This document shows positions 31,017 to 64,000 of a DNA stretch of 64,000 nt, piece after piece. The DNA lies in contig CAWFVE010000003.1 in NCBI GenBank assembly GCA_963819235.1, positions 947,568 through 1,011,567 of the forward strand. The letters are read 5' to 3'. Position 1 is the first letter of the stretch, and each line of letters starts with the position of its first letter. The notes under the pieces are model-generated. The model was given only the letters and a program-made list of their open reading frames with translations, ran no database searches and was not told the DNA's origin. Source of the DNA: an uncultured Acidobacteriota bacterium. Its GTDB lineage: Bacteria; Acidobacteriota; Terriglobia; Acidiferrales; UBA7541. The translations under genes were made by a program, and so were the position numbers.

Positions 31017-31049
31017 CGCGCTGGTCCTGGCGGTGTCCTTCCCACGTTG

Positions 31050-47619: not shown

Positions 47620-47988
47620 ACCGAAACCGAACAATATCGGGCTCCGAGGCGCATTGCCCGAACGGCGTCACGCTTGCCTTCCGCTGCCGCGACCTGTAGG
47701 TAATGTTCCACTGCCTACAATGCAATCACGGCGACGCGTGGCACCTCTGAGTGTTGACCCCATTTCCTCACTTTTTGCTGAATCACGATGTGTAGCAAGA
47801 GCGCCACTGGAATCAGAAAACCAAGCTTTATCAGAGATGCCGCGTTGAGGACGTAGGCTCTATAGAACTTGTCAGGACCTGACGATTTCTTAACCCTCCG
47901 GTGTATACTCAAATTGCCCGAGTCCCTGGCGTGGCCTCTCGGATGATCCCGAATTAGGGTGGAGCCGTTACTGCCCAACCTATGCGCG

Positions 47989-48018
47989 TTGACACCGACA
48001 AATGTGCGGCGCTATGGT
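47989..48018 (+). promoter_or_regulatory. sigma70-like promoter TTGACA-N18-TATGGT upstream of cassette 1
   Basis: Read directly; it lies ~25 nt upstream of the ATG at 48042. Confidence 0.3.
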
Positions 48019-48041
48019 CGCGCCGAGATACGGCGAGCACG

Positions 48042-48434
48042 ATGAGACAGAGGGCCGGAATTGTTCCGCTTGTGGTGTTTGGCTTATTGGCGGTTTCCGT
48101 TCCGCTGTTTGCGCACCACGGGAACGCCTCGTTCGACACCAAACTAACCACGGTGACGGGAACGGTGACCGAGTTTATTTGGTCCAATCCTCATGTTTGG
48201 CTAAAAATGGACGCCAAGGACGCCAACGGCAATGTCCAGCATTGGATTGTCGAAGCTCAGAACACCGTGTCCATGAGAGCCATAGGCTGGAGGCCAGATA
48301 CATTCAAGCCTGGGGACGTCGTCAGCGTTGACGTCAACCAAGCCAAGAATGGCCGCCCCATCGGATCGACCGGTGGCTCCAGCCCCACCTCGGCCAAGCG
48401 CCGCATCATCATCAATGGCAAACAGTTCCAATGA
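48042..48434 (+). CDS. Small secreted protein, AHH family copy D1 (possibly DUF6152-like)
   Basis: MRQRAGIVPLVVFGLLAVSVPLFA|HHGNASFD...GTVTEFIWSNPHVWLKMDAKD. The signal peptide ends in FA followed by HH. One of four paralogues in the window. Confidence 0.8.
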   Translation: MRQRAGIVPLVVFGLLAVSVPLFAHHGNASFDTKLTTVTGTVTEFIWSNPHVWLKMDAKDANGNVQHWIVEAQNTVSMRAIGWRPDTFKPGDVVSVDVNQAKNGRPIGSTGGSSPTSAKRRIIINGKQFQ

Positions 48435-48526
48435 GAATGCTTGGGTGATCGTCGGTGCTATTGCGCCTGCCCCGGTCACGGGCCACTTCTAAAATCGCAG
48501 CTTTAGCTGCATGAGGGATTGCGAAA

Positions 48527-49438
48527 ATGTTTAAGCGCCTGCTCGGTTCGGCCGTTGCTCTGATCTTTTTGGCGTTTTCGCCTGCCGTACGCGCTCAAAC
48601 CGCGGCGGGCAACGCTTCCCAAGACAAATGGAATGGCGTCTCGCCTCTGCGATCGACGTACGAGGGGAAAAAGTCGGGCCCGGCTCCCGTCCGCGACATT
48701 TCGGGGATCTGGGACGCAGCTTACGAAGATGGAGGACGCCAAACGAGTGGTGCGAAAGAGCACCCGTCGGTCTACCCAGGAAGAAATTTTGCCGAAGGAG
48801 GGGGGCACCCCGACGAAACCGGTATTGTTCATCCTTTGCCTTATACGCCCGCGGGGCTCGCGGCGCTGAAGGCCAATCGGCCTTCGAACGGTGTCAGGCA
48901 AGTCCCCTCCGCATCTTCAAATGATCCGATTAATAAGTGTGATCCGCTCGGATTCCCCTACATGGAACTTTTCGAGCTAAGGACCTTGGATGTCGTCCAA
49001 GCGAAAAACCAGGTGCTTATCATCAGCCCGTTTTATGGCAATTACCGTATCATCTGGACCGACGGCCGCGAGCTTCCCAAGAATGAAGAGGCTCGCTGGA
49101 ACGGCTACTCTGTAGGCAAATGGCTGAACGATTCCGACTTTTTCATCGAGACCAACGGAATGATGCCCGGGAGCTGGATCGACCACGCCGGCCGTCCGCA
49201 TAGCGATGCCCTGCGCGTCGAGGAGACCTGGCACCGCGTGGACCGCGACAATATGCAACTCACGCTGAAGATTATCGACCCCAAGTACTACAGCGAACCG
49301 TGGCTGGCTCTCGACAAGTTTCCTATGCACTTGCAACCAGCCGATTTCGACATCCAGGAGCTGCGCTGCGCCCCCTCGGAGATGGACAAGTACAACGACA
49401 ACGTGGGCGACGTAGTCCTTGACCCCAAGACGAAATGA
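48527..49438 (+). CDS. Secreted ~300-aa partner protein, copy P1
   Basis: Signal peptide, then DISGIW, KCDPLGFP, IIWTDGRELP, GYSVGKWLNDSDFFIET, GRPHSDALRVEE and IIDPKYYSEPW. These motifs are shared with four paralogues. Confidence 0.8.
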   Translation: MFKRLLGSAVALIFLAFSPAVRAQTAAGNASQDKWNGVSPLRSTYEGKKSGPAPVRDISGIWDAAYEDGGRQTSGAKEHPSVYPGRNFAEGGGHPDETGIVHPLPYTPAGLAALKANRPSNGVRQVPSASSNDPINKCDPLGFPYMELFELRTLDVVQAKNQVLIISPFYGNYRIIWTDGRELPKNEEARWNGYSVGKWLNDSDFFIETNGMMPGSWIDHAGRPHSDALRVEETWHRVDRDNMQLTLKIIDPKYYSEPWLALDKFPMHLQPADFDIQELRCAPSEMDKYNDNVGDVVLDPKTK

Positions 49439-49608
49439 TATTTTCTGCAACTCTCGGCTCGCTGCCCTGAACTCAGTTTCGGAGGACTGCGCTTGAGCGC
49501 GCCTTCGTCGGTATGGTGGCAAACTGAGCGCGGATTGCCTTGATTCGTTCGCGCGCTGCCGTGGAGCGCTTCCGCCATCCGGCGTTGCGTCAACGTTCTC
49601 TGCGCTGC

Positions 49609-49708
49609 AAGAAAGCTTCACTCGTTTGGGTTGCGTCATGAACACCACTTTATAGAGAACAAGTTTATCTCCGATGGTGTTGCATCGACCGATTGAGCTG
49701 GCAGGGAT
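49609..49708 (-). repeat. Second copy of the ~100-nt terminal segment of the IS30-like stump
   Basis: By eye about three quarters of positions are identical to 35110-35215, in the same orientation (shared strings GAAAGCTTCAC, CGTTTGGGT, AACACCAC, GATGGTGTTGCATCGACCG.TTGAGC). The reverse-strand ATG at ~49640 opens MTQPKRVKLS, versus MTQTRRVKLS in the other copy. Confidence 0.55.
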
Positions 49709-49793
49709 TTGGGGAATGTCGTACGGCGACTACTGAAGTCCCGACGCGTTGCGCAGTCCGATGGGGAACGTTTAATGTTGTTTCTATCCGTCC

Positions 49794-51386
49794 CTACCGG
49801 TTGATGTACCAGTAGCCAACCTTGTTATTCACCGAACTCGCATACCACATGCGCCCCTGCGAATCCATGAAGAATTCGCGCATGGAAATCTCGGAGTGCG
49901 GATACGGATATTCGATCACCTCGCCCGTTTTGGGATCGAAGCGGCCGATCGTGTCCTGCTCGTGTGAGGCATACCAGATCATCTTGTTGCGATCCATGCC
50001 TATGGCGTAAGGGCTAGCGGCAGGTCCGGGCAAATCGAATTCTTTAAAGCTTTCGGTTTGGGGATCGAATCGGCCTAACTTGTTTCCGCCTCGCTCGCTG
50101 AACCACACAATATTATTCTCGTCCACCAGCAAGCGTTGCGGCTTGCCCTTGGTGGGCGGGTAGAACTTCGAAAGTTTCCCATCCTTGGTGACTCTGGCGA
50201 TAGGTCCAGGAAAAACAAACGATGTGAACCACTCGTCTCCATTGTGTCCGACGATGTTGCCATAGGTGTTGCCGACGTCGAAATGAGAGAACTTATTGGC
50301 GATCGGGTCAAACATCGTGATGGCGGGACCGCCGCTGGTCCACACGCGTCCCCGCTCATCGACTCGAATTGTGTGCGTGCCGGTTGGCGTGCCGTCCAGC
50401 AGTGGCGTGTTCTGATATTCCACGATCTCCTTGGTAAACGGGTTCAAATGCCCGAACTTCCCCAGTGCTGCTTCGGTGAACCAGACGGTGCCGTCGGGAG
50501 CCGGAATTGCCGAGTGAATACCCGCCGTTTTTGTGAACGGCAACGGGAATCGCGCCAACTCGGCTGTTTTTGGGTTCAGCCGCACGACTTCGTTGCCGCG
50601 CCCGTAATAAGGAATCCAGAACATACCGTCTTTGTCTTCGACGGCGCTCCACGGACCCTGTCCCTTGATTGGCGGGAAATCGTATTCCACGTAGGCGATA
50701 TTCATCGCCTCCGGGCTGAACGTGCGTACCAGCTTCTTATATTCCGGTAGGGCGGCGGGAGAAGCGGGCTTCTTCGAGTCAGGACCGAACATGGCTGCCA
50801 GGAATTCCGCAAAGTCCTGGGCTTTTTCGTCGGTCATCCGGCCGCCGCCCTCGCCGCCCATGATCGTATTGCTCATGTACTGGATCAGAGTCTTCCAGCC
50901 TTGTGCATCATGGCTTTGCGATGCCACTCGATGCTGGAGCGAATGGCAGGAAGTCATGCAAGTCGTGAAGTAGGGTTCCTGATATCTCTTCGAAAGGTCG
51001 TGCTTGGCAGTTTTGGGCAGCAGTTGCGTTATCTGGTAGGTGGTCAGGTCGGTCCAGCGCACAGAGGCCGCCTGCAGCGCGAAATCGCAAGCCAATTTTT
51101 GGTCGGCAGTCAACTGGACGTTGTCGTGGGGATCGCTCCTGTAGCCCACGGCCGAGATTTGTACGGAATAGGTGGCAGCCGGCAGGTTATTGATGTGGTA
51201 GCGGCCCTGCGCGTCCGACAGCACCGTGACCGTCATTTTGTTTTGCGAATTCTCGGCGACCACGAAGATGCCCATGATGGGCTTGCCGTCGGGTCCTGTG
51301 ACGTTACCTGCAATCGAAGCCGCGAAGGCCGTTGACGCCAGCGATGCCGTCAAGGCGAGAGAAACGAGTTTACCGATGAACCTCAT
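49794..51386 (-). CDS. CarboxypepD_reg domain plus Vgb (streptogramin lyase)-like beta-propeller protein
   Basis: Signal peptide. IAGNVTGPDGKPIMGIFVV...GRYHINNLPAATYSV is a carboxypeptidase-regulatory-like fold. A mid-region CMTSCH motif follows, then repeated ...W(F/Y)(T/A)(E/S)...G(R/H)(F/L)(D/N)P.T... blades. The ATG at 51386 is preceded by GGGAGGAG. Confidence 0.75.
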   Translation of the reverse strand: MRFIGKLVSLALTASLASTAFAASIAGNVTGPDGKPIMGIFVVAENSQNKMTVTVLSDAQGRYHINNLPAATYSVQISAVGYRSDPHDNVQLTADQKLACDFALQAASVRWTDLTTYQITQLLPKTAKHDLSKRYQEPYFTTCMTSCHSLQHRVASQSHDAQGWKTLIQYMSNTIMGGEGGGRMTDEKAQDFAEFLAAMFGPDSKKPASPAALPEYKKLVRTFSPEAMNIAYVEYDFPPIKGQGPWSAVEDKDGMFWIPYYGRGNEVVRLNPKTAELARFPLPFTKTAGIHSAIPAPDGTVWFTEAALGKFGHLNPFTKEIVEYQNTPLLDGTPTGTHTIRVDERGRVWTSGGPAITMFDPIANKFSHFDVGNTYGNIVGHNGDEWFTSFVFPGPIARVTKDGKLSKFYPPTKGKPQRLLVDENNIVWFSERGGNKLGRFDPQTESFKEFDLPGPAASPYAIGMDRNKMIWYASHEQDTIGRFDPKTGEVIEYPYPHSEISMREFFMDSQGRMWYASSVNNKVGYWYINR

Positions 51387-51855
51387 GGCTCCTCCCAATC
51401 CGGGATGTCCAAGTGATCTCTGGAACGAACGGCAACATACAACCGACCACCTCAGAATGCAATGTTCGGGCCACCTTGGATGCGGCGTTGGCGGCTAAAA
51501 CGAAAAAGGTTGCTGAGAAGCAGATCCAATCCTTTTTCATGGACACCTACGCCGTATACCAATCGGTAAAAATCGAGCGCTGTGCGTCAGCGACGGACAT
51601 CTTCCCTGAGCACACCTGCTGATGCAGCTAACAGCCTATCGCTATAAAGTAATCGTGCCGATCGCACTACTCTGGCGATGTTCGCAGATGGGAGACAGGA
51701 GAGGCCGAGCCAGGAAACTTGTGCCGGCTTAGCCCATTCGGTGCTACACTATCGCGACGATGTGAATTACTGCTTCCCCTGATAAACAGCTGTCGTTGTG
51801 CTACGGGTAACCTTTCTGTCGCACACTGGGACTCCATCTACTTGAGGAGGCTACG

Positions 51856-52266
51856 ATGATGAGGCACAGGGTTCTACTGGGCTTGCCGCTCGTCTTGGGG
51901 TTCTTGGCTGCACCCGCCTTCGCGCACCACACCTTTTCCGTTGAATACGACAAGGACAAGTGCAGCGACATGGTTGGTACCCTCACGAAAGTTGACTGGG
52001 AAAATCCGCACGTTTACTTCTATATCGACCTAAAGGACGCCGATAATCAGGTTACCTCCTGGAGCTTTGAGGCAGTGTCGGTAGCCTATCTGAAGCGGAG
52101 CGGGATACAGAGGCAAGATTTCATCGATAATATGGGCAAGACCGTCACTGCCCGTGCCTGCCTGGGGAAAAACGCCAGCATAAAAAGAGCCGCTGCTGAA
52201 TACATCACGATGCCCGATGGCCGAAAACTGAAAGTCGGCAGCGATTACGAGCATGGGCAGAACTGA
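51856..52266 (+). CDS. Small secreted protein, AHH family copy D2
   Basis: MMRHRVLLGLPLVLGFLAAPAFA|HHTFSVEYD...GTLTKVDWENPHVYFYIDLKD. GAGGAGG lies upstream. Confidence 0.8.
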   Translation: MMRHRVLLGLPLVLGFLAAPAFAHHTFSVEYDKDKCSDMVGTLTKVDWENPHVYFYIDLKDADNQVTSWSFEAVSVAYLKRSGIQRQDFIDNMGKTVTARACLGKNASIKRAAAEYITMPDGRKLKVGSDYEHGQN

Positions 52267-53077
52267 ACGGCTGCGAACAACGGTTTGTCTTGCTCGCCTT
52301 GTTTTAGTCCTCGCAACCGTGGCGGCCTGTGTCTGCATGGCTGCAGCCCAGGACAACGGGGGTGCGTTGCCGAAGGGTGGACCGGCTCCGCGTGCCGCCG
52401 ACGGTCATCCCGACCTTTCCGGCGTGTGGTTTCCGGGCTACACGGGCACCTACTCTACGGATCATCCTGCAGCGCAACGCCCATTTGATCCTAAGGCGAC
52501 GCCCGAAGAAAGGCCCGCCTTCCAACCGTGGGCGGCAGCCAAGATCAAATCCATGACTGCTGTCGATCTCGAACTCGCGAGGCCCTCAGTGAATTGTTTG
52601 CCGCGCGGCACGCCCGGCATGCTGCTCCTGAATCCGTACCCCACACAATTGGTGCAAACGCGCGACGAACTGATCCAACTGAACGAATTGAACACCAATT
52701 TTCGCGTGATCCACACTGATGGCAGGCCGCACACCAAAAATCCCGATCCGACTTTCGTTGGAGATGCAACCGCGCATTGGGAGGGAGAGACGTTGGTGAT
52801 CGATGTGATTGCCATCGACGAACGCACCTGGAACAACTTCGTCGGCTGGTTCCATAGCGATCAGGAGCACGTGATCGAGCGCCTTACGCGTACAAGCAAA
52901 AACTATCTCACCTATCAAGTTACGATCGAGGATCCCAAAGTGCTCACGAAGCCGTGGACCTCGGCGCCACGGATGTGGTCGCTTGGCCACGAAGATCTGG
53001 AGGAGTACTACTGCACGGATAACCAGGAAGTGCAACAATACGGGTCCATCAAAGACAAAGACGCGAGCAGCAAGTAA
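52253..53077 (+). CDS. Secreted partner protein, copy P2
   Basis: Overlaps D2 by 14 nt. Motifs PDLSGVW, NCLPRGTP, VIHTDGRPHT, ATAHWEGETLVIDV, FHSDQEHVIER and IEDPKVLTKPW. Confidence 0.8.
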   Translation: MGRTERLRTTVCLARLVLVLATVAACVCMAAAQDNGGALPKGGPAPRAADGHPDLSGVWFPGYTGTYSTDHPAAQRPFDPKATPEERPAFQPWAAAKIKSMTAVDLELARPSVNCLPRGTPGMLLLNPYPTQLVQTRDELIQLNELNTNFRVIHTDGRPHTKNPDPTFVGDATAHWEGETLVIDVIAIDERTWNNFVGWFHSDQEHVIERLTRTSKNYLTYQVTIEDPKVLTKPWTSAPRMWSLGHEDLEEYYCTDNQEVQQYGSIKDKDASSK

Positions 53078-53197
53078 TCAGGCCGAGCCTCTTGGCGCAA
53101 CGAGCACGCCTTTCAACCGGTGAGTCAGCTAACCTCTGTTTTCAAGGAAGTCGAAGCGGAGTTTCACGATTGCCTGCCAAAATCAGCAGCCGATAAG

Positions 53198-54085
53198 CTA
53201 TTTCTTTTGTGAGTCTGGTAGCACGGGCTTGCTCACCTGCTTGTCATATTCGGCTTGTTCTGACGGTGAGCAGAGCATCTCGCGAATGTCGAAATCGGCT
53301 GATTGCAGCCGCATAGGGAATTTATCGAGGGCATTCCAGGGTTTCGTATACATTTGAGGATCAATGATCGTCACCGTGAGTTCAAAAATGTCATGATTCA
53401 CTCGGTGGAACCGCTCTTCCACTCGCAAGTCGCCGCTATGAGGACGACCGGCATTATCCAGCCAGGTTCTTTCGTCGAGGCCAATCGTCTCGACGACCAA
53501 CGTGGTATCGTCCACCCACTTGCCGACCGAGTAGCCGAACCATCGAGGCTCCATAATATCCTTTTGAGGCGGGAAGTCTCGGCCATCGGTCCAGATGTTG
53601 CGAAAAGTCCGATCATTTTGATACAAGATCAGCACCTGCTTTTCCGTCTGCGTAATCTGTATCGACCTAAAGCCGAAGAGTTCTAACCGCGGAAACCCGA
53701 TTGGATCGCAGACGTCAAACGGATCATTATTGGTCCCAATGGCGACTTCGGTGGTTCCAAATCCAGGCCTATGAGACTTCCATGTTTTTTCCCCAAGAGG
53801 GGTAAAAGGCAACTGATGCTCGGGTTTGTTATCTGACGGGTATTGCATAGCGCCATATTGCTGGACTCCGGCCCGCCACCCCGCGGCTGGTTCCCAAATC
53901 CCAGAAAGGTCGTGGCGAGGCGCCGCGAGTGACTTCTGGTCTTTGGGCGGAACAGGGACGTCCCTGTACCAACCGTCGACATGTTCCGCAGTTCCCGGCT
54001 CCAGCGTCGCAGCATTTTGAGCGCGGGCCGGAAGTGAAAACATCGACGCAGCAAGTACGATTGGGACCGCTAACCGATTTAACAT
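53198..54085 (-). CDS. Secreted partner protein, copy P3
   Basis: The ATG at 54085 (MLNRLAVPIVLAASMFSLPARAQ) is preceded by GGAGGAAGAGGAA. Motifs HDLSGIW, VCDPIGFP, NIWTDGRDFP, GYSVGKWVDDTTLVVET, GRPHSGDLRVEE and IIDPQMYTKPW. Confidence 0.8.
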   Translation of the reverse strand: MLNRLAVPIVLAASMFSLPARAQNAATLEPGTAEHVDGWYRDVPVPPKDQKSLAAPRHDLSGIWEPAAGWRAGVQQYGAMQYPSDNKPEHQLPFTPLGEKTWKSHRPGFGTTEVAIGTNNDPFDVCDPIGFPRLELFGFRSIQITQTEKQVLILYQNDRTFRNIWTDGRDFPPQKDIMEPRWFGYSVGKWVDDTTLVVETIGLDERTWLDNAGRPHSGDLRVEERFHRVNHDIFELTVTIIDPQMYTKPWNALDKFPMRLQSADFDIREMLCSPSEQAEYDKQVSKPVLPDSQKK

Positions 54086-54105
54086 GGGAGATTCCTCTTC
54101 CTCCA

Positions 54106-54504
54106 CTACCGGTCAGGACCGCGATCTTCGGTCTGCTGGCGTACCCACTTGCCATTGGCGAGTTGTGCCCGCTGGACACGCCCGACAGCCGCGCCATTGT
54201 CAGGTGTCAAAGCGACCACCGTCACTTCATCCCCAGGCTTGAAAGTCGCGCGGGTTATGCCGGAATTGATGAGACTTGACGGAGCGTTCCACTCAACGAC
54301 CCAATTGACAACCTTCTCGTCGTCGCCTTTTACATCCATCTTCAGAAAGGCGTGCGGATTAAGCCAAACCCACTCTGTCACGGTTCCCTTCAGAGTCATC
54401 TGTTTGGCATGGCCATAGGATGCGTTTCCGTGGTGCGCGAAGAGCGGAAGGGAAGCAGCGAAAAGGCCGATGATCACGAGGGAACTCCTGAGCTTATTTT
54501 TCAT
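54106..54504 (-). CDS. Small secreted protein, AHH family copy D3
   Basis: MKNKLRSSLVIIGLFAASLPLFA|HHGNASYG...GTVTEWVWLNPHAFLKMDVKG. Confidence 0.8.
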   Translation of the reverse strand: MKNKLRSSLVIIGLFAASLPLFAHHGNASYGHAKQMTLKGTVTEWVWLNPHAFLKMDVKGDDEKVVNWVVEWNAPSSLINSGITRATFKPGDEVTVVALTPDNGAAVGRVQRAQLANGKWVRQQTEDRGPDR

Positions 54505-54767: not shown

Positions 54768-55889
54768 CTACGCGGCTGGTCTCATCCGCGGCAACAACCT
54801 AAGAGCGTTCTCGCTCTTAATGGCCTGAAGCTCCTGAGAGTCAAATACCCCTGAAGCCGTTAAACCATTGGTATTTTCGAGAGAAGAACGATATGGGTAA
54901 TCTGTCCCGAATACGATCTGCGACATGGGCACGACGTGCCGCAGGGCGGTCATTGGCACCGGGTGAAATGCTTGCGCCGTATCGTAATAGAATTTGCCGA
55001 CCTCGACTTGGAAATCCGATCGCCAAGTACCGGGGTTAGTTCCTTTGGGAGGGAGGCGATCAGCGAAGCGCCCTATCAAGAATGGCATGGTGCCGCCGGC
55101 GTGAGAGAAAATCATACGAACGTCCGGATAGCGTTTGGACGCGCCGCTATAGACCATTCGGACGATCGCACGTGTCGTGTCCGTCCCATACTCGATTGCG
55201 GCGGACGCCACGCCAGAGAGGAGGTTCTTGCAACAATCGTTGAAAGTTGGGTGAACGAAGACGACTGCCTTACGTCGATTGAGTTCCTCGAAGAGCGGCG
55301 CGAAAAACGGATCTCCCAACCATTTGTTGCCGTAGCTTGAAAACAGCTGGATACCGTCCAACTTCAGGTTATCGAGGGCGTACTCGGCCTCCTGCAGGCT
55401 GCCGTCGATATCGGGCAACGTCAGCGTAGCAAAACTGCCGAACCTGCCCGGATAATCCGAAGCAAGCTTCGCAGCATATTCATTACAGTCGCGGGCCAGA
55501 TGCCGTCCCTGGTTTTCGTCTCCAAACGAGACGCCCGGCGTGACAATGGAATTCATGGAGGTAGTGACGCCCGCCTGATCCATATCCTCTATGGTCTTCT
55601 GGGCCGACCAACCGACCAGGGCTGCGGGAAAGTTCCTGTGATCTTTCAAGACCTGCATGTAAGCTGTCGGCGCAAAATGGTGGTGGACATCAATCCAACC
55701 CTTCGTTGGAGGCGACGTCAACCGTTCTTGTGGTGCTGATACGCTCCAAGGAAAAATCGCACTCCCAGCCAAGGCGGCGACTCGAGTGAGGAATTGCCGT
55801 CGAGGCATGGAGGAAGAACTTGAGTCCGCCGCGGCTCCGCTTCGCAATGTGCGGGAATCGTGGTTGTGTTTGTGATCCAGGAGACTCAT
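54768..55889 (-). CDS. Tat-signal amidohydrolase (amidohydrolase_2/ACMSD-like)
   Basis: RRQFLTRVAALAGSA is a twin-arginine signal. WIDVHHHFAP is a metal-binding motif, followed by a TIM-barrel-like remainder. The ORF track starts at TTG 55901. Confidence 0.8.
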   Translation of the reverse strand: MSLLDHKHNHDSRTLRSGAAADSSSSSMPRRQFLTRVAALAGSAIFPWSVSAPQERLTSPPTKGWIDVHHHFAPTAYMQVLKDHRNFPAALVGWSAQKTIEDMDQAGVTTSMNSIVTPGVSFGDENQGRHLARDCNEYAAKLASDYPGRFGSFATLTLPDIDGSLQEAEYALDNLKLDGIQLFSSYGNKWLGDPFFAPLFEELNRRKAVVFVHPTFNDCCKNLLSGVASAAIEYGTDTTRAIVRMVYSGASKRYPDVRMIFSHAGGTMPFLIGRFADRLPPKGTNPGTWRSDFQVEVGKFYYDTAQAFHPVPMTALRHVVPMSQIVFGTDYPYRSSLENTNGLTASGVFDSQELQAIKSENALRLLPRMRPAA

Positions 55890-55966
55890 GGCCTCTCGCA
55901 ATAGAGTGCCGCCTCTCCGCTAAAGACCAACTGTGAATCGGACACCCGTTGCCGAGCTAGGTTCTC

Positions 55967-58900
55967 TCAGAATAGAAGTTTCAAAGAGAATTGAATTTGC
56001 CGACTGGAGGTCGACGTTGAAATAATCCCTGTGAAGGCCGGGTTTTCCGCAAGGTCTTTCACACTTCCCGAAAGAAATCCGCCATTTTGCGCCGGTCCTA
56101 AATTCGGGTGGTTCAAGATATTAAAGAGTTCCGCACGGAACTGCACTTTGCCAGCCTCGCCCAGCCAGCGCAGTGAAGTGTCCTTGTTTATGGAGAAGTC
56201 CCAGGTGGACAAGCCCGGCCCTCTCAGAGTGTTCCTCGGCACATCGCCGATGGTCCCGACAGCGGGCAGCGTAAACATATTGGGATTAAACCACTGCCCG
56301 ACCGTGCCAGTGATCACGGTGTTGGGGTTAAAAACCACGGGATTGTAAGGAATGCAGCCCGTCGAGTTTGCGGGACAGGAAGTCACACCCGCAGCTTGCG
56401 CCGCGGCCGTTACCGTCGCGAGATTGGAGCTTGTGACGTAATCGGGTCGTTCAAGCCCTCCGTTTGTGCCTGCCAGGCCGGCCTGTTCGCGGTCGGCGCC
56501 CAGCAGTGGCGTGAATGGCTGGCCCGTCTGCACGGTGACGATGCTTCCCGTCCACCATCCGCTCAGAACCTTGCCCAGGAATCCCCGCACCGGGGCATTC
56601 GGCAAATTGTACAAAACGTTGAAATGCCAGTTCTGTTTTATATCAAAGTTGCCTGGGCCATAATCGAGCATGGGATTAAACGGATCTTCGATCAAACCCG
56701 TTTGGCTGCCGCTGGTATCGGAATTCGAGAGGCCTTCCGTATCGTCGAGCAACTTACTGAATGTGTAGGCGCTTTGGAATTGCAACCCGTGGCCCAGCCT
56801 CTTCGTCAGATTCACTTCCAAGGCGTTGTAATTGGATATGCCGATCGTGTTGAACAATCCGAAGTTCGTATAAAAGGGATTGAGCCGGGGCGCTGCGGTG
56901 AAGCCCGGTGGACAAGCAGGGCCTTGGGTTGCTTGGCAGCCCCAGACCGGGCTAGCATTCGGAACCACTGTTGTGAACCCCGCGCATCCTTGGGGCACGA
57001 AGGTATTAGAATTGGGACAAAACGGATTCGATTCGTTTGCAGGTTGCCATAGGTTCAGTCCCCGCGAGCCGGCATAGGCTACGCTCAAAGCCATTCCGAA
57101 CGGAAGCTGCCGCTCGACGGTCAAATTGAAATCCTGCATGTGCGGCGATGTGAAGTTCGTAACTACGGCCGTGGGCGATGATCCTTGGAGAGCGCCGAAG
57201 ACGGTGCCGGGTGGAACAGTCAGGGGAAGCGGAAGTACACCAGGAGTCTTTGTTGAGTTCGTGACTGTGAAACTGGAACTGTAAGGCGGCATCCCGCCCA
57301 GCATCGCAAACAGCGCGCCAAGATCACTGATATCGTAGAGGATGGCGAAGCCGCCTCTTACGGACGTTTTGCCATTGCCGAATACGTCCCAAGCAAATCC
57401 GATTCGAGGGCTCACATCGCCATGCGTCGGGTCGTTAACGATATGGCCGATTGAGACGGTGTCGCTGTACGGCGGATCTGCGAAAAACGATTGGTGCCCT
57501 TGCGCTTCATTCGGCTGTGTATTGAATTCGTATCGCAAGCCAAGATTCAGAGTGAATCGCGGCAGCACGCGATATTCGTCCTCCGCGTAAAATCCCACCG
57601 TATTGTAGAGCATATACTTCAGATTGTTATTTCCCGGAGAGGGAACGGAATAGCTCCGGTATTGGCCCAGCAAAAATGACTGGAGCGAGCCGAAGGTAAC
57701 CGAGCCTTTTGGTCCCTCGTTATTGTTGGCGTACTGCTGATAGTGATTGATTAAAGTTCCAAATTTCAGCGCGTGCTTGCCTTTGGTCCAGAAAACGTCG
57801 TCGCCGAAACTGAAGATGTTCTGCCTGTCGTTCAAGGCGCTGCTGGCTGTATCACTGAAATTCGCGATGGGAGTGATGTTCATGGGGCAGATCGGCTCGC
57901 CAGTCACGCACGAGTACTGCTGGCCGGATACTGAGCTGGTGAACGGGTTCGAAGAAGATGGCGTCGCGTCTAGGACATTCGACCGGCTGAATGAGAAACG
58001 TGCCGAGTTCAACAGGATCGGAGTAAAAATGTGGTTCTCAGAGATGGTCACGTACTGCTGCCGCTCCACGAGACCGAAATCGAACTGCGGAAAAATTTTC
58101 GGATAGCTCTCATTGGCATCGTCAATCGTGTAACGGACGAAAGTCGAATCCGCACTGGAGAAATTGTGGTCGATCCTTGCTTGCCCGTAGTCTTCCCGGG
58201 TTCTCGAAGTGGCCAGATAAGTAAACTCGTCGCCGGGCTCAATGTTCGGCAACGGCCAAAGCGCGAGGATCGGTTGTATGACGGGCGCTACGTTTTCCGT
58301 TGCGCCGCCTTTCAGTGAGGGATCACATGCGCTCGTCACCGTCTCCACCGGACCACCTGGAGTATTGATGATCGGCGTATGGCACGCTGCTGGGATCGTA
58401 GGCGTTATGCCAACATTTGGCGGGTTTGCATAAACTTGCCGAAATCCTTCATATGTAGTGAAGAAAAACGTCTTGTCCTTCTTGATCGGTCCGCCTACGC
58501 TGCCGCCGAACTGATTTCTGCGGAAGGGAGCGATGCGCAACCCTCCGCCCGGAACGGTGGGCGGAAGCGAGAATAGCTCGTCGAAGAGATTGCGCGCGTC
58601 GAACGCGTCATTCCGCACATACTCGTAGAGGTCGCCATGAAGCGAATTCGTCCCGCTCTTGGTGACAATGGTCATCTGGCTGCCCATGTTGAGCCCGTAC
58701 TCGGCGCTGAACGTATTGGTCATGACCTTGTACTCTTGAATGCCGTCTAGTCCGAGCGACTCTCCTGTGATCGATGCGGCACTGGCGCCCTGAATGTTTC
58801 CCATGATCGCGCCATCGAGCGTGTACATGTTCGAGCGGAGCGGGGCTCCATTGGCGCTATAAAAAACTCCAAAGAGGCCATTGGTGCCGAAATTATTGTT

Positions 58901-59410
58901 TGCGAACGGGGTTACGCCTGTTTGCATGAGCGTAAGGTCCACGAAATTCCGCCCATTTAGAGGAAGATCGGAAATCTCGGTCTCGTTCACGAGTTGGCCT
59001 AAAGAACTTGACGTCGTGTCGATCGCCGGCGCTTCGCCGGTAACGGTGACCTGCTGCGCTGTTGTACCGACCTGAAGCGCGAAATTCACGACGGCTTCCT
59101 GAGCGACATCGAGCGTGAGTCCCGTTTGGGTCACGGTCTCGAACCCGGTCGACTCGGCCTTTACGTCGTAACGGCCGACCGGCAGGGCCGGAAAACGATA
59201 CGCCCCGTCATCGCCCGTCATAGCCATCCGCGACACACCCGACTCCACATTCCGCACGCTTACGCTCGCTTTTGGAACTGAGGCGCCGCTCGCGTCCTTC
59301 ACGACCCCCGAGATCGTCCCCGTCGGCACGACCTGCGCCGCCAGAGAAACTCCCACAAGAAACACAACCAGTACAGTCCGGCCCACCCTGGAACACACGT
59401 CATTCAACAT
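55967..59410 (-). CDS. TonB-dependent receptor with an N-terminal carboxypeptidase-regulatory-like domain
   Basis: 1147 aa. Signal peptide, GTISGVVKDASGASVPKASVSVRNVESG...YRFPALPVGRYDV, a plug-like region, then a long beta-barrel ending ...SRQIQFSLKLLF (C-terminal Phe). Confidence 0.9.
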   Translation of the reverse strand: MLNDVCSRVGRTVLVVFLVGVSLAAQVVPTGTISGVVKDASGASVPKASVSVRNVESGVSRMAMTGDDGAYRFPALPVGRYDVKAESTGFETVTQTGLTLDVAQEAVVNFALQVGTTAQQVTVTGEAPAIDTTSSSLGQLVNETEISDLPLNGRNFVDLTLMQTGVTPFANNNFGTNGLFGVFYSANGAPLRSNMYTLDGAIMGNIQGASAASITGESLGLDGIQEYKVMTNTFSAEYGLNMGSQMTIVTKSGTNSLHGDLYEYVRNDAFDARNLFDELFSLPPTVPGGGLRIAPFRRNQFGGSVGGPIKKDKTFFFTTYEGFRQVYANPPNVGITPTIPAACHTPIINTPGGPVETVTSACDPSLKGGATENVAPVIQPILALWPLPNIEPGDEFTYLATSRTREDYGQARIDHNFSSADSTFVRYTIDDANESYPKIFPQFDFGLVERQQYVTISENHIFTPILLNSARFSFSRSNVLDATPSSSNPFTSSVSGQQYSCVTGEPICPMNITPIANFSDTASSALNDRQNIFSFGDDVFWTKGKHALKFGTLINHYQQYANNNEGPKGSVTFGSLQSFLLGQYRSYSVPSPGNNNLKYMLYNTVGFYAEDEYRVLPRFTLNLGLRYEFNTQPNEAQGHQSFFADPPYSDTVSIGHIVNDPTHGDVSPRIGFAWDVFGNGKTSVRGGFAILYDISDLGALFAMLGGMPPYSSSFTVTNSTKTPGVLPLPLTVPPGTVFGALQGSSPTAVVTNFTSPHMQDFNLTVERQLPFGMALSVAYAGSRGLNLWQPANESNPFCPNSNTFVPQGCAGFTTVVPNASPVWGCQATQGPACPPGFTAAPRLNPFYTNFGLFNTIGISNYNALEVNLTKRLGHGLQFQSAYTFSKLLDDTEGLSNSDTSGSQTGLIEDPFNPMLDYGPGNFDIKQNWHFNVLYNLPNAPVRGFLGKVLSGWWTGSIVTVQTGQPFTPLLGADREQAGLAGTNGGLERPDYVTSSNLATVTAAAQAAGVTSCPANSTGCIPYNPVVFNPNTVITGTVGQWFNPNMFTLPAVGTIGDVPRNTLRGPGLSTWDFSINKDTSLRWLGEAGKVQFRAELFNILNHPNLGPAQNGGFLSGSVKDLAENPAFTGIISTSTSSRQIQFSLKLLF

Positions 59411-59899
59411 AGAACACTGCCTCCGCGATCGGTCTGTCCTGATACAGGAGCCGCTTCACCGCTTAAACTAGCCGTGCGACGTCTTTTGCTAGAGAGGCCG
59501 TTTATTCTGATTTCCGACAATTGTCAAGCGCTTAATTGCCGCGAAGCCGGTACTGGGTTCTTTCAGAGACTCTCGATTGATCATGATCTTGCGCCAGCTC
59601 TGATCATTGCTTGAGAAGAATATTCGTGACTGCGGCAGGGCCAAAGGCACTGCCGGCGAAACGATAGCGCACACCCTGAATCCACGAACGAACTAGCGCT
59701 CGAAACAAACAGCATGCAATGGCCTGTGTCGCTTTCTCGTCGCGACCGACGGAACTTTATTTCGAGCTGCGCGTTTGTGCGGGACCTCCTCCGCCGAACT
59801 CAGGTCCGTGGCGAATACTGGGAAGGAGAAGTCCTCCAGGATCAGTCGGATCGCATCAGGACGCAATTGGGTCACGCCCGGCCCCTATCGTCCTCCCGC

Positions 59900-59929
59900 T
59901 TGACATTAATTCAGTTGCTCTTGTAGAGT
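59900..59929 (+). promoter_or_regulatory. sigma70-like promoter TTGACA-N18-TAGAGT upstream of cassette 4
   Basis: Read directly. AGGAGG lies 5 nt before the ATG at 59970. Confidence 0.35.
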
Positions 59930-59969
59930 CGCGACAACGTTCCTTCCCTCAACACAAAAAGGAGGCCTG

Positions 59970-60416
59970 ATGAAACGGCACCTTCCTTTGACTGGCTTAG
60001 GCTTATTGGTTTTGAGTTCTGTCTTATTAGTCCTTCCGGCTTTTGCACACCATGGATTTCAGTATGAGTACGACGGGAACAAATACATCACCGTCTCAGG
60101 TGTGTTGACGAAAATCGAATGGGAAAACCCTCACATCTATTTCAATGCCGACGTGAAGGATGCAGATGGGAAGGTGACCTCGTGGCGTTTTGAAGGCTCA
60201 TCCGTCACGCTAGTCAAAAGGACGGGAGTCACTCGGTCGGATTTCGCGGACAATATCGGTAAAACGATCAGTGTAAGTGGCTGTCCAGCCTTGGGCGGCC
60301 AGCCTAGAGTCGCAGCCGAAACGGTCAAGCTGCCTGACGGTCGAGAAATCACCGTTGCCAGGAAGAGATATTTCGGCGATGGCAGCAAGCCAGCGGACGA
60401 CAAAGGCGAAAACTAG
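59970..60416 (+). CDS. Small secreted protein, AHH family copy D4
   Basis: MKRHLPLTGLGLLVLSSVLLVLPAFA|HHGFQYEYD...GVLTKIEWENPHIYFNADVKD. Confidence 0.8.
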   Translation: MKRHLPLTGLGLLVLSSVLLVLPAFAHHGFQYEYDGNKYITVSGVLTKIEWENPHIYFNADVKDADGKVTSWRFEGSSVTLVKRTGVTRSDFADNIGKTISVSGCPALGGQPRVAAETVKLPDGREITVARKRYFGDGSKPADDKGEN

Positions 60417-60615
60417 ACTTCCTTCGCTCTTGACATAAAGGCTTTCAAGGCACCGAAACGCCACGGTCACCATGGGTTGTACTTACGATATGTGGCCGCT
60501 TTCAATCCGGGCTGGAGCCCGCGCTCAATGGCAGTCGGACGTGAAGTACCGACGCGTTGCCATGACCCAACATTTGACAGAGAAGGCGCAATAGCAGAGA
60601 AGGAGGGAATAACAC

Positions 60616-61596
60616 ATGAAACTTCGCTCTAGTGCGTACCTGGCGATCACGACAGGCGCGCTGGCGTTGGTATCCATCTTCTATATACACGCGAGTGCCC
60701 AGGATAAGAAGGGAAGCGGCGCCACGCCGGGCGGGGTCCAGAAGGTGCCCTCCAAGCCACTGCCTGAAGGCGGGCCTGCGCCCCGCTTGGCGGACGGCCA
60801 TCCCGACCTAACCGGACATTGGTACCCGGGGTTCTTGGGAAAAGAGGATGCCACGCTCGTAAGTTCCGCCGCAACTCAGGGTGAACCGTTGCTTAAGCCC
60901 TTCGATCCTAAGGTGACGCCCGAGGAAAAGCCTTCCTTTCAGCCTTGGGCAATCGAAAAGATGAAAGAGACGGCAACCGGCGGCGGAGCCGATGCGGATG
61001 ACACAGGCAGGGGAGGGACAAACCTTAGGAATTTTCAGAATTTACCTAAGGCTCAAAAGATAGCCATTCTCAAGAACGAGATACTTCACTTATCGATGGA
61101 TTGCATGCCTCATGGTGTTCCAGCCATGTTCCTAGGTGCTGGCCACGGCATGCAGTTGGTGCAATCGACTGGATTGTTGGTGCAATTGACCGAGTTAAAT
61201 CATGACTTTCGACTGATACCTACGGATGGACGGGCGCATACCAAGGATCCAGATCCTGCATTCAACGGCGAAGGTGTGGCGCATTGGGACGAAGATACGC
61301 TCGTGATCGACACCATCGCAATCGATGAGAGGGCCGGTGTTACCCAGCGATGGACATTACATAGTGATCAGGAACACGTTATCGAACGCATCAGCCGCCC
61401 CTCATTGAATTACCTGAATTACCAAGTCACGGTCGAGGACCCCAAAGTACTGACAAAGCCGTGGCATTCCGTCGTTCATCATTACTCCCTCAGCCGCGAG
61501 TCTCTGTTGGAGTGGTATTGCGGCGTTGCCAGTCATAATGACGAGGACATCGCAGCTTACCAGGAGGAGATACGAAAGCTGGAAGAAGAGCAGTAG
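60616..61596 (+). CDS. Secreted partner protein, copy P4
   Basis: Motifs PDLTGHW, DCMPHGVP, LIPTDGRAHT, GVAHWDEDTLVIDT, LHSDQEHVIER and VEDPKVLTKPW. Confidence 0.8.
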   Translation: MKLRSSAYLAITTGALALVSIFYIHASAQDKKGSGATPGGVQKVPSKPLPEGGPAPRLADGHPDLTGHWYPGFLGKEDATLVSSAATQGEPLLKPFDPKVTPEEKPSFQPWAIEKMKETATGGGADADDTGRGGTNLRNFQNLPKAQKIAILKNEILHLSMDCMPHGVPAMFLGAGHGMQLVQSTGLLVQLTELNHDFRLIPTDGRAHTKDPDPAFNGEGVAHWDEDTLVIDTIAIDERAGVTQRWTLHSDQEHVIERISRPSLNYLNYQVTVEDPKVLTKPWHSVVHHYSLSRESLLEWYCGVASHNDEDIAAYQEEIRKLEEEQ

Positions 61597-62132
61597 GCGC
61601 GAATCTCTTCCAGCATCGCGCTTGAATGGCCAGAGGCGAACCCCCAAGCTGACTACGCTGGAGACCGACCTATGCTGGAACACCCGTCTGCCCGCCCTTG
61701 CGTTGCCCCGTCTAATCCCAACTGTCGTCTGTCGTCTTGCGAGTTCTGCTCCCAGTTTGACTCTACTGCGGCAATACCTGCCGAAGAAGGCGGATCTGTC
61801 CCTGCGACTCGCAGTCAGACCTGGACGAGATCGCTCTGCGTCTCAATCAAAGGCCACGAAAAACGTTGGGATTTCAAACTCCGGCGGATAGACTGCAAGC
61901 CAGTATTGCGTCGACCCCTTGAGAACACCCTTGTTTTCGGAAATTGGCGCTAATCAGCAGAAGTCTCTCTGAGTTTCTAAGGAGGAGGGCTAACCCCCGA
62001 ACGAGGATAGTCTAGTTGTCCTAAACACGCGCCGTCGGCATGTGGTCTGAGTTGACGCGAATGCATCCACAGACTTATGCTTTCGGTCCAAGAAACAGTT
62101 TAAAGGTCGTAAATTCCGGTTGAAGGTGCGCA

Positions 62133-63035
62133 ATGAAGTGCAAGCCAATAGGGCGCCTCCCGAGTAAACTCTGTCTCAAAGTTGTGGTATTGGGAGCTCT
62201 GCTGTGGACTCCCGCATGGGCTCAGGTCGACCTTGAGGGTTCGTGGCGTCCGCTTCCGCGCGCGCAAGACGGCAGCGGGATGATCGGCGACATCGCCGGC
62301 GTGCCTGTCACTGACGGCGACCGCTTGAGAGTCGAAACCTGGTCTCCGGAAGACTTCGATATCACAGAGTGGAGCTGCCGCCCGCACCCGTGGGACTATT
62401 CACTTGAAAGTGAGCGGTCTCCGATACGATTCTGGGCCGACGCCGATCCCGCCACGCAGAAGATCATCGCTTATCATGGCCACATTAATATGGAAGAGCA
62501 GGAAGTGACCATCTGGATGGATGGCCGCCCGCGTCCTTCCGAAAATACTCTGCATACCTGGAGCGGATTTTCGACCGGCGAGTGGGATGGCGATGTCCTG
62601 GTCGTGACAACGACGCACCTCAAAGAATCCTACGAGCGTCGCAACGGACTCATGCGCAGTGATCAGGCAGTGGTGCGTACGCGCTGGCGACGCATGGGCA
62701 ATTACCTGCAGGCGACTTCGATTCTTTATGATCCGGTCTATATGACCGAACCCTACATCCGAAGCAACTTGATTTGGGTCAATGACCCCACGATGCAGAT
62801 GCCGCCTTATCCGTGCGAGGAGGCGACCGATACGGCGGTTCCTAGAGGCGTGGTGCCGCACTTTCTTCCAGGCAAGAGTCCCTTGCCCGCGTTCAACAAG
62901 GATCTGACGGATAAGTTCGGAACGCCTTATGAGCCTAGACTTGGCGGGGCTGAAACGATGTATCCCGAGTACATCAAGAAGATGAAAGCCATGCCGCGAC
63001 CTCCGAAGCTTGCCGATAGCAGTTCGGCGCGCTGA
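62133..63035 (+). CDS. Secreted partner protein, divergent copy P5
   Basis: Signal peptide ...TPAWAQ, then VDLEGSW, IWMDGRPRP, GFSTGEWDGDVLVVTT, MRSDQAVVRTR and LYDPVYMTEPY. The C.P.G.P motif is degenerate (SCRPHP). Confidence 0.7.
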   Translation: MKCKPIGRLPSKLCLKVVVLGALLWTPAWAQVDLEGSWRPLPRAQDGSGMIGDIAGVPVTDGDRLRVETWSPEDFDITEWSCRPHPWDYSLESERSPIRFWADADPATQKIIAYHGHINMEEQEVTIWMDGRPRPSENTLHTWSGFSTGEWDGDVLVVTTTHLKESYERRNGLMRSDQAVVRTRWRRMGNYLQATSILYDPVYMTEPYIRSNLIWVNDPTMQMPPYPCEEATDTAVPRGVVPHFLPGKSPLPAFNKDLTDKFGTPYEPRLGGAETMYPEYIKKMKAMPRPPKLADSSSAR

Positions 63036-63059
63036 TGAGGCGAGCGCACGTACGACTGT

Positions 63060-63240
63060 GGCGTGTCTCACGCGGTTCGCAATGGCCAGTCTCTATCCTC
63101 GCCTTTGCAATTTTGATGTCAAAATAAATCTGGCAATGCGGATTCATAAAACGGAAGTATGTAACCGTCCCGGTCCAGAAGGCCCCTGCCTCCTTACTTA
63201 GCGGCGCCAACACGCCTAATCCCGCCAAGCGCCGTCAACA
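63060..63240 (-). pseudogene. Possible decayed AHH-family (D-type) remnant
   Basis: Reverse frame reads ...TGTVTYFRFMNPHCQIYFDIK, matching the GT(V/L)T...W.NPH...K core of D1-D4. No FAHH, no clean signal peptide, and the frame is broken on both sides. Confidence 0.3.
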
Positions 63241-63767: not shown

Positions 63768-63787
63768 GGAGTCCTCCTAGATAAACT

Positions 63788-63946: not shown

Positions 63947-64000
63947 GGCGTCCTCCTTGTAACCTCATGCTCGCCCAATCTCCCAAAGGATGCTGTGATC

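Follow-up and report, generated by a model that had tools for sequence, protein, structure and literature searches.

A duplicated pair of exported proteins from two uncharacterised families is frequently linked to TonB-dependent receptors in Acidobacteriota and sphingomonads

The periplasmic Cu(I)/Ag(I) metallochaperone CusF of the Cus system is a small exported five-stranded barrel of the oligonucleotide/oligosaccharide-binding (OB) type, which binds metal on strands β2 and β3 using a Met2-His-Trp site. In the His-brace and other N-terminal-His copper proteins (lytic polysaccharide monooxygenases (LPMO), CopC, YcnI and PmoB), the mature chain starts with a histidine that is accompanied by a second, distant histidine on an Ig-like or fibronectin-like β-sandwich, and in CopC/CopD and YcnI/YcnJ the periplasmic His protein has a membrane partner. 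Bacterial LPMO systems also recruit c-type cytochromes and YceI-like (calycin) domains, and ZinT has a calycin-like barrel. Periplasmic or secreted zinc proteins such as Zcp (DUF4198; PMC12663993) and ZepA, ZinT and ZnuA (PMC10957091) typically have His-rich N-termini or three-His pockets, and the exported ZinT/YodA, Zcp and ZepA, with three-His pockets and/or His-rich mature N-termini, assist metal uptake alongside TonB-dependent transporters (PMC12663993; PMC10957091). Here, we analysed a stretch of 64,000 nt of contig CAWFVE010000003.1 from an uncultured Acidobacteriota bacterium (hereafter the window), in which a small DUF6152 protein (D) and a larger protein of an unnamed family (P) occur as repeated, exported pairs around a TonB-dependent receptor (TBDR). 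We found that D and P are a real functional unit that recurs in other genomes, and that D carries a candidate metal site.

The four D and five P genes that an earlier, sequence-only reading of the window had placed around the TBDR were all confirmed in the list of open reading frames (ORFs), with identical coordinates and strands (Table 1). Every copy has the signal peptide assigned to it: a charged n-region precedes a hydrophobic core, and the cleavage site is of the A-x-A type. The guess that D belongs to DUF6152 was correct, as all four copies score above the 27-bit gathering cut-off of the Pfam model PF19649 (E 1e-18 to 3e-26). Protein alignments gave 44-45% identity for D1/D3, 46% for D2/D4 and 27-34% for the remaining D pairs; the corresponding values are 47-49% for P1/P3, 50% for P2/P4 and 21-30% for the remaining P pairs. 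In a repeat search of the DNA, the copies resembled each other with ~75% identity only over the best-conserved 60-70 nt of the coding stretches. Protein identities of 21-50% together with such short DNA similarity rule out a recent repeat or an assembly artefact, and by these measures the copies are ancient paralogues of two subtypes (D1P1/D3P3 versus D2P2/D4P4).

To follow the pair beyond this genome, we compared 82 loci: 80 from a scan in which a P peptide pattern was run against one genome of each GTDB species, one from an exact look-up, and the window. The adjacency of D and P, which had been noticed in the window, thus holds in 81 loci elsewhere, including sphingomonad plasmids. Among 190 intact P genes, 109 have a D gene immediately upstream on the same strand with a median gap of 48 nt; among the others, 26 are placed behind another P in a tandem array, and for 17 the D lies just downstream. 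Moreover, the two proteins diverge in lock-step. The D-D and P-P identity matrices of 107 adjacent pairs are correlated with r = 0.87 (maximum of 500 permutations: 0.08), and the same value was obtained using only paralogues within a locus (r = 0.87, n=59), which indicates that D and P have duplicated and diverged as a cassette.

The pair also occurs as a single protein. P0314 (375 aa) consists of a signal peptide, the AHH start and DUF6152, followed by a P domain that begins at DLSGFW without a signal peptide of its own. Such fusions form at least 10 clusters at 90% identity, which are 65-100% identical to P0314 (the nine others 65-87%), and the architecture was found on dozens of independent contigs, with three such genes in tandem in locus L089 and one cluster assigned by NCBI to a Pseudomonadota metagenome-assembled genome (MAG). 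D comes first in all D-P fusions, so that its N-terminus stays free. Other fusions join two P domains (P0285, 531 aa) or a metallo-β-lactamase (MBL)-fold domain and P (P0311, 541 aa). An ORF of 815 aa in another locus (L065:11005-13449) matches both the P and the D profile.

Most of the D-P loci come from Acidobacteriota MAGs, and pairs were also found in a Planctomycetota MAG and a Vicinamibacterales MAG. In the Alphaproteobacteria, the order is D-D-P-TBDR on a plasmid of Croceibacterium atlanticum. A Sphingobium sp. TomTYG65 plasmid carries P-D-P-D; the genes that come next, on the other strand, are two small ones whose products align with DUF6644 and a TBDR gene. Novosphingobium sp. KACC 22771 carries P-D-P-D beside two TBDR-like ORFs, and PP1Y is similar. 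At least three P genes lie within 20 kb in 29/82 loci, with a maximum of seven P and up to five D. The order D4-P4-P5 of the window is conserved as well: P5 orthologues (68-84% identity) hold the second-P position after a D-P pair in L063 and L067, where a SoxH-like MBL gene comes next downstream; such a gene was sought 3' of P5 in the window and is absent. P2 orthologues (61-70% identity) always follow a D, and P3 orthologues (62-77%) also follow a D. Taken together, adjacency, correlated divergence, natural fusions and recurrence across Acidobacteriota, Alphaproteobacteria and a Planctomycetota MAG establish D-P as a unit.

The surroundings of the Sphingobium pairs (L084, plasmid positions 292748-311119) were annotated on both sides. 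One flank of P-D-P-D holds a monooxygenase and a peroxiredoxin, and the other the TBDR, tauD, a sulfonate-binding protein, an alkanesulfonate monooxygenase (ssuD-type) and a rhodanese, a context that hints at a role in organosulfur acquisition in sphingomonads.

D can also occur without P, and is then paired with DUF6644, in Paracoccus denitrificans PD1222 (L083:8974-9834), P. versutus (L092:5980-6843) and Azospirillum ramasamyi (L086:6911-7797). Both Paracoccus pairs are divergent from a penicillin-acylase-family gene beside the paa cluster, and a large patatin-like protein is encoded after the Azospirillum pair.

DUF6152 has no function assigned in Pfam, no solved relative and no mention in the searchable literature, and D gave no NCBIfam match and nothing meaningful when its profiles were run against PDB sequences. 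The signal peptide of D, as read from the sequence, opens with a basic n-region, continues with a hydrophobic core and ends at an A-x-A-type site of the form ...(L/A)FA↓HH (the arrow marks the predicted cleavage). Alignment of the four window copies confirmed the motifs FA↓HH and G(T/V)(V/L)T(E/K)..W.NPH, described from the window before, in each of them. Among 158 D sequences from the 82 loci, Ala(-1), His1 and His2 are each 99% conserved, and A↓HH lies at the predicted A-x-A cleavage site in 147; this junction is specific to D, whereas the A↓Q junction of P is common in other exported proteins of these genomes. Further along the chain, conservation reaches 96-99% for Asn26-Pro27-His28 (His28 99%), 95% for Trp45 and 98% for Glu48, and position 34 is Asp or Glu in 96% of the sequences (Asp in 89%). 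The exact pattern A↓HH..NPH..D..W..E is found in 125 of the 158, and no Met is among the positions conserved to at least 80%. The only D copy without His-His, which reads AER, also lacks His28 (NPN). Otherwise, the paralogues retain the candidate metal ligands while the rest of the protein falls to ~27% identity.

An AlphaFold2 (AF2) model of mature D3, built from a 66-sequence alignment (pLDDT 86), shows five strands, of which 3 and 4 are separated by a helix, and an N-terminal tail that is disordered. Every Foldseek match in the PDB was an OB fold (SSB, LysRS N-domain, PriB) at a marginal E of ~2e-3, and D is predicted to be an exported OB-fold barrel without a specific relative. In the model, strand 2 begins with His28, and Glu48 is located close to the end of strand 3, which runs antiparallel to it; by strand register, their side chains should share the canonical OB-fold binding face. 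Three invariant His and a carboxylate, with one His as the free N-terminus on a flexible tail, suggest that His1, His2, His28, Glu48 and Asp/Glu34 are a candidate mononuclear transition-metal site.

D resembles CusF in being a small exported five-stranded OB-type barrel with candidate ligands on strands β2 and β3. Where CusF has its Met2-His-Trp site, D would use His/Glu and a free His-His at the N-terminus, and it is partnered with P and not with an RND efflux pump. We found no match of the Pfam model CusF_Ec to D (E ≤ 0.1) and no PDB CusF sequence (E ≤ 10), and CusF was not among the top Foldseek matches. The likeness to the His-brace proteins lies in the invariant His at the predicted start of the mature chain and in a second, distant conserved His, for which His28 (99%) is the candidate. 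However, D is predicted to have an OB fold and not a β-sandwich, and a His brace would not usually count a conserved Glu (or Asp/Glu34) among its ligands.

For the partner protein, P1-P5 gave no Pfam or NCBIfam match at E ≤ 0.1 and nothing meaningful against PDB sequences in profile searches. The suspicion that neither protein belongs to a functionally characterised family therefore holds: D matches only DUF6152, and P matches no Pfam, NCBIfam or PDB entry. The P family comprises 2,054 clusters at 90% identity in a word-indexed search and 13,763 representatives of 50%-identity clusters (E ≤ 1e-3) in an exhaustive search. Its N-terminus is built alike, with a basic n-region and a hydrophobic core ahead of an A-x-A-type site (...A.A↓Q, read from the sequence), and a lipobox-like string is present in only 17/188 P. 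Three motifs proposed earlier, D(I/L)xGxW, (T/M)DGR and DP...(S/T)(E/K)P(W/Y), occur in all five window copies. Two others need a small correction: in G....(K/H/E)W....(L/F), P1 and P3 carry one residue more between W and (L/F), and P1 reads V-E-E-T in place of V.(E/T)(E/R). Residues conserved to at least 80% in the family include D57, G60, W62, C138, P140, R174, D179, G180, R181, G193, W199, W217, S226, E233, R237, D251, P252, W259, E278 and C281. Exactly two Cys are found in 137 of the 147 P sequences scored, which suggests a C138-C281 disulfide and, with it, an oxidising compartment. No His, Met or further Cys is conserved in the alignment, and P itself is therefore not an obvious metal binder.

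The AF2 model of P1, built from 82 sequences, reached a pLDDT of 80.6, with the barrel at residues 150-270 above 90. A very confident first strand with D-x-S-G-x-W is followed by a partly helical excursion of ~90 residues, by eight more strands (pLDDT > 90; nine strands in all) and by a C-terminal helix. The best Foldseek matches were CRABP2, fatty-acid-binding proteins (FABPs), the Treponema lipocalin Tp0751 and avidins (E 0.02-0.3, TM 0.42-0.54 on target); those to CRABP2 and the FABPs (E 0.02-0.1, probability up to 0.97) lie below any safe threshold. A β-barrel of the calycin type (lipocalin/fatty-acid-binding) is thus weakly supported by the model. The D-x-x-G-x-W motif, with G60 at 99% and W62 at 97%, lies in the first predicted strand, although such a motif alone is no proof of lipocalin homology. 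The predicted antiparallel barrel of P shares with the lipocalin, FABP and avidin calycins the G-x-W first strand, the helical excursion between strands 1 and 2, the C-terminal helix and conserved Arg residues. P differs from them in its doubled size, the insertion of ~90 residues and the conserved disulfide; no Pfam lipocalin, FABP or YceI match was found for P, and the structural matches are weak. Unlike in ZinT, Zcp and ZepA, the His site and the barrel of D-P are split over two chains, with no conserved His in P, and no sequence relationship of these proteins to D or P was found.

To see which genes accompany the pair, the neighbouring ORFs of the 82 loci were clustered, and each family was tested for its share of immediate neighbours of D or P against a baseline of 249/1148 genes (21.7%). 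The tightest link was observed for a PufC-like c-type cytochrome (~390 aa, two CxxCH, NCBIfam c_type_nonphoto/PufC-like), with 20/27 members as immediate neighbours (p 9e-9), often directly after the pair in the order D-P-Cyt. TBDRs followed with 19/30 (p 1e-6), DUF6644-like membrane proteins with 5/7 (p 0.007) and SoxH-like MBL proteins with 3/3 (p 0.01). No significant link was obtained for Amidohydro_2 (4/14, p = 0.36; the family is present in 14/82 loci), MFS transporters (0/13) or PrpD (0/13), and NHL and SGL propellers were not enriched among the immediate neighbours. The cytochrome at L063:14387-15565 (-) and its 26 homologues in 23 loci combine the PufC-like two-haem module with an uncharacterised C-terminal domain of ~240 aa.

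The TBDR linkage proposed from the window is thus real, standing far above the 22% baseline and extending to a TBDR within ~2 kb in all four sphingomonad loci with P; with TBDRs in 27/82 loci, it is frequent and not obligatory. The TBDR, the Tat amidohydrolase and the Vgb-like propeller are present in the window as described, but the latter two are not significantly tied to D-P, and stronger recurrent partners that are absent from the window (PufC-like cytochrome, DUF6644 and MBL-fold proteins) had been missed. The interpretation as an envelope uptake or processing locus is supported by these data.

DUF6644 proteins are four-helix membrane proteins with one conserved His in helix 1, and their genes are usually arranged as tandem pairs. 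Acidobacterial neighbours of D-P scored 46.1, 43.0 and 35.3 bits (cut-off 27) and were aligned by hhalign to the alphaproteobacterial members with a probability of 100%. Faint matches to DUF2214 and UPF0093 (E 0.03-0.3) are a lead and not a finding, and full-text literature searches returned no relevant paper on DUF6644, nor any on a His brace in an OB fold or on acidobacterial TBDRs. A periplasmic His protein with a membrane partner, as in CopC/CopD and YcnI/YcnJ, has its counterpart here in D and DUF6644.

With regard to locus architecture, D-P is comparable to the polysaccharide utilisation loci (PULs) of Bacteroidota with SusC/SusD and to the Xanthomonas CUT (carbohydrate utilisation containing TBDR) loci, where a TBDR, exported hydrolases and reiterated accessory binding proteins occur in many paralogous loci per genome. 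In contrast to these systems, D and P are unrelated to SusD and are not lipoproteins, P is predicted to be mostly β and not TPR-like helical, there are several D-P pairs per TBDR and many pairs without one, and neither the cytochrome nor DUF6644 is a PUL feature.

The features of the region are listed in Table 1. On the minus strand, the genes run in the order TBDR, Amidohydro_2, D3 and P3, and D4 is transcribed divergently from the TBDR. P2 overlaps the end of D2 by 14 nt, and the gap between D4 and P4 measures 199 nt. Alignments revealed an insertion of ~40 residues in P4 relative to P2 and, in P5, the absence of the HSD-motif His as well as of the first conserved Cys. P1 is most closely related to proteins of Acidobacteriota MAGs (94% identity over the best segment). 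At E ≤ 1e-3, the Pfam Plug model gave no reported match to the TBDR, and a plug-like stretch (LPLNGRNF) was recognised by eye only.

Table 1. Features of the D-P region, in positions of the window
Feature	Position	Strand	Assignment and evidence
D1	48042-48434	+	DUF6152, subtype A; mature N-terminus HHGNASF (predicted); PF19649 E 1.3e-24, 86.6 bits
P1	48527-49438	+	Exported protein, predicted barrel, subtype A; ORF, AF2 model
Vgb_lyase/SGL-like β-propeller	49794-51398	-	Exported; CarboxypepD_reg and CxxCH (CMTSCH); Pfam
D2	51856-52266	+	DUF6152, subtype B; mature N-terminus HHTFSVEY (predicted); PF19649 E 1.6e-18, 67.1 bits
P2	52253-53077	+	Subtype B, partner of D2; ORF, alignment
P3	53198-54085	-	Subtype A, partner of D3; ORF
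D3	54106-54504	-	DUF6152, subtype A; PF19649 E 2.6e-26, 92.0 bits
Amidohydro_2 hydrolase/decarboxylase	54768-55901	-	Tat signal SMPRRQFL; PF04909 E 2.9e-31
TBDR, 1147 aa	55967-59410	-	CarboxypepD_reg and OMP_b-brl_4; PF25183 E 4.5e-184, PF13620 E 1.7e-22, PF00593 E 1.6e-7
D4	59970-60416	+	DUF6152, subtype B; PF19649 E 1.3e-19, 70.5 bits
P4	60616-61596	+	Subtype B, partner of D4; ORF, alignment
P5	62133-63035	+	Divergent second P without its own D (D-P-P arrangement); alignment
Promoter-like site, D1	47989-48018	+	TTGACA-18-TATGGT
Promoter-like site, D3	54587-54559	-	
Promoter-like site, D4	59900-59929	+	TTGACA-18-TAGAGT
Promoter-like site, P5	62052-62081	+	

The Vgb-like propeller between D1-P1 and D2-P2 has a single CxxCH haem-c motif and stays below the cut-off of the NCBIfam VgbA/B models; it may be a haem-propeller redox or lyase enzyme. 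Homologues near P1-type pairs were found in L010 and L014 only, and its membership in the D-P system is uncertain. A general role as a D-P partner was discarded, as the phmmer matches in other loci were mostly cross-matches to the CarboxypepD_reg domain of TBDRs.

Eight sigma-70-like promoter matches were found in the 16-kb region, four of them within 100 nt upstream of D1, D3, D4 and P5, although the promoter count was no higher than in shuffled sequence and neither promoter nor terminator scans gave totals above chance. The match ahead of D1 backs its start at 48042. Among 94 D upstream regions, there was no enriched palindrome or shared operator, and Fur-box matches were no better than in shuffled sequences; control by a metal regulator is therefore not supported, although the box was that of E. 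coli and acidobacterial operators may differ. In this respect, D-P also differs from ZinT, Zcp and ZepA, as no Zur- or Fur-type operator was found for it.

The remainder of the window consists of ordinary chromosomal genes, and Rfam and tRNA scans of the window found nothing. Downstream of P5, ~1 kb (63036-64000) has stops in six frames and no convincing ORF, Rfam or tRNA match. Directly upstream of D1, a protein of 971 aa (44704-47619, +) has a patatin domain, a weak phosphonate-binding-like region at the N-terminus and a long hydrophobic, apparently membrane-spanning middle. A connection to the patatin-like protein of the Azospirillum D-DUF6644 locus was considered and dropped: the two are not orthologous (BLASTP E 0.09), and their presence is probably a coincidence. 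Further away, an Lhr-type helicase (DEAD + WH_Lhr + DEAD_assoc, 1216 aa) and an ATP-dependent DNA ligase (555 aa) at 26651-32714 (+) look like a DNA-repair gene pair unrelated to D-P. Finally, a protein of 562 aa (4974-6662, +), encoded ~50 kb from the TBDR, has C-terminal TonB_C as its sole Pfam match and may be a long TonB-family energiser.

What could such a pair do in the periplasm? The explanation that we tentatively put forward, while rating it somewhat below an even chance, is a periplasmic metalloprotein module of two subunits, to which TBDRs deliver imported cargo and which probably acts on this cargo chemically. D and P would be the two subunits of one exported module, duplicated as a unit, and we infer a heterodimer in which D binds metal and P binds ligand. 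Cleavage of the signal peptide of D would expose His1-His2 on the flexible tail, and together with His28, Glu48 and Asp/Glu34 these would most likely form a single transition-metal site on the OB-fold binding face. P would be a charged barrel that is stabilised by a disulfide, covered by a helical lid and marked by conserved Arg, Asp, Glu and Trp residues, and it would most likely hold an organic ligand. Located below the TBDRs, the D-P complex would take over the imported cargo and present it to the metal centre of D, and the many paralogues would serve different cargoes. The metal centre would not be the cargo itself; as a redox or catalytic cofactor, it would process the cargo or strip it, and the cytochrome or DUF6644 could cycle this centre between redox states. 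The argument for a redox or catalytic cofactor is that the pair is often directly beside a PufC-like cytochrome and/or DUF6644. Metal as a cofactor rather than as cargo is further suggested by the constancy of the ligands in diverging paralogues, by a copy number per locus and genome far above that of usual metal-trafficking proteins, and by the fusion of P to D or to the MBL-fold domain, another metal-dependent catalytic module. The redox or catalytic chemistry as well as the identity of metal and cargo are speculative.

Several observations weigh against this explanation. The set of three His and a Glu would suit redox-inert zinc as well, and the link to the cytochrome would then have no explanation; the closeness of His1/His2 to His28 and Glu48 is argued from strand pairing. 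Foldseek support is weak for both folds, with best E-values of 2e-3 (D) and 2e-2 (P). A TBDR, cytochrome or DUF6644 gene lies within 10 kb in only 43/82 loci, the D-P fusion loci have no TBDR in their vicinity, and the window itself has a TBDR but neither the PufC-like cytochrome nor DUF6644. Moreover, the neighbour p-values overstate independence, since related MAGs contributed many of the 82 loci.

A bolder form of the proposal is a so far unrecognised class of periplasmic metalloenzyme, with a mononuclear N-terminal-His centre in an OB-fold subunit that is set against a calycin-like substrate barrel. Electrons would pass via the cytochrome or via DUF6644, which might bind haem or copper, and the enzyme would oxidise or reduce organic matter or metal chelates imported by TBDRs. 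In this specific form, we consider the idea doubtful at best.

The main rival to the processing module is pure metal trafficking, which is unlikely in our judgement. Here, D would chaperone or buffer Zn, Cu, Ni or Fe in the periplasm (in the manner of CusF, CopC/YcnI, ZinT or Zcp) and would pass metal imported by the TBDR to DUF6644, acting as a CopD-like importer, or to periplasmic metallohydrolases (MBL, Amidohydro_2), with P as an accessory or metallophore-binding partner. The invariant His1, His2, His28 and Glu48 and the resemblance to His-rich zinc and copper proteins (PMC12663993; PMC10957091) are in agreement with this idea, as are the TBDR adjacency, the MBL genes adjoining or fused with P, the occurrence of D with DUF6644 alone in Paracoccus and Azospirillum, and the TM1 His of DUF6644 with its faint DUF2214/UPF0093 matches. 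However, up to seven P and five D within 20 kb, with several loci per genome, would be unusual for one metal, and a ligand set that is the same in all paralogues fits a constant cofactor better than a diversified cargo. Neither Fur-box enrichment nor a shared palindromic operator was found upstream of the 94 D genes, and the tight link to the c-type cytochrome would be unexplained if the metal were zinc.

Somewhat less probable still is a non-catalytic shuttle, in which D-P picks up organic nutrients at the TBDR and delivers them to transporters of the inner membrane or to enzymes of the periplasm, much like SusD or a solute-binding protein, and the His residues are structural or part of an interface. 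The calycin-like barrel is a classic carrier fold for small ligands, TBDR adjacency is seen in two phyla, the neighbourhoods are rich in exported hydrolases, lactonases, PrpD and MFS transporters, and the large paralogue families resemble expanded families of solute-binding proteins. In contrast, an invariant pair at the exact mature N-terminus together with His28 and Glu48 is hard to see as structural only, especially as the sole D copy without His-His also lacks His28. MFS transporters are never immediate neighbours, and 171/188 P have no lipoprotein signal, unlike SusD.

We see only a slim chance that D is an inhibitor or regulator of co-encoded periplasmic metallohydrolases. TIMPs (tissue inhibitors of metalloproteinases) have an N-domain with an OB fold whose N-terminal residue chelates the protease zinc, and D, likewise with a predicted OB fold and an invariant free N-terminus, could chelate the active-site metal of Amidohydro_2 or MBL-fold enzymes encoded nearby in the manner of TIMP or serralysin inhibitors. 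This would leave the P partner, the D-P fusions and the linkage to DUF6644 and the cytochrome unexplained; most D-P pairs have no adjacent metallohydrolase, and His28 and Glu48 suggest a metal site of D's own.

Export of D and P across the outer membrane by a CarboxypepD_reg-type TBDR, with both acting outside the cell, is similarly very improbable. In Myxococcus, Oar exports PopC, and the window TBDR, with CarboxypepD_reg and OMP_b-brl_4, presumably resembles Oar in its architecture; D and P carry Sec signals only. However, the sphingomonad pairs adjoin ordinary TBDRs and some also inner-membrane DUF6644, and many D-P loci have no TBDR at all. Finally, a lineage-specific tandem duplication of hypothetical genes without functional coupling or TonB link, in favour of which only the lack of annotation can be named, has next to no standing, since conservation across phyla, correlated divergence, the fusions and the enrichment of neighbours all contradict it.

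Acidobacteriota rank with the most abundant bacteria in soil and have very many TBDRs, whose cargoes and downstream handling are largely uncharacterised. With D-P, a large family without an assigned function is tied to TBDRs, to a c-type cytochrome and to DUF6644, a second uncharacterised membrane family; new here are the pairing of DUF6152 with P, the predicted fold and the candidate metal ligands. We regard D-P as TBDR-linked periplasmic accessory machinery, putatively of metalloproteins, built from two uncharacterised families and as an accessory pair without a described precedent. The proposal can be tested directly, since D has an invariant His-His N-terminus, D and P occur as natural fusions, and culturable sphingomonads carry the pair. 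If the two-subunit module is true, it would represent a new family of periplasmic metalloproteins and give a function to DUF6152, DUF6644 and the unnamed P family. If the metalloenzyme form is true as well, the pair would be a major overlooked part of feeding in soil Acidobacteriota and sphingomonads.

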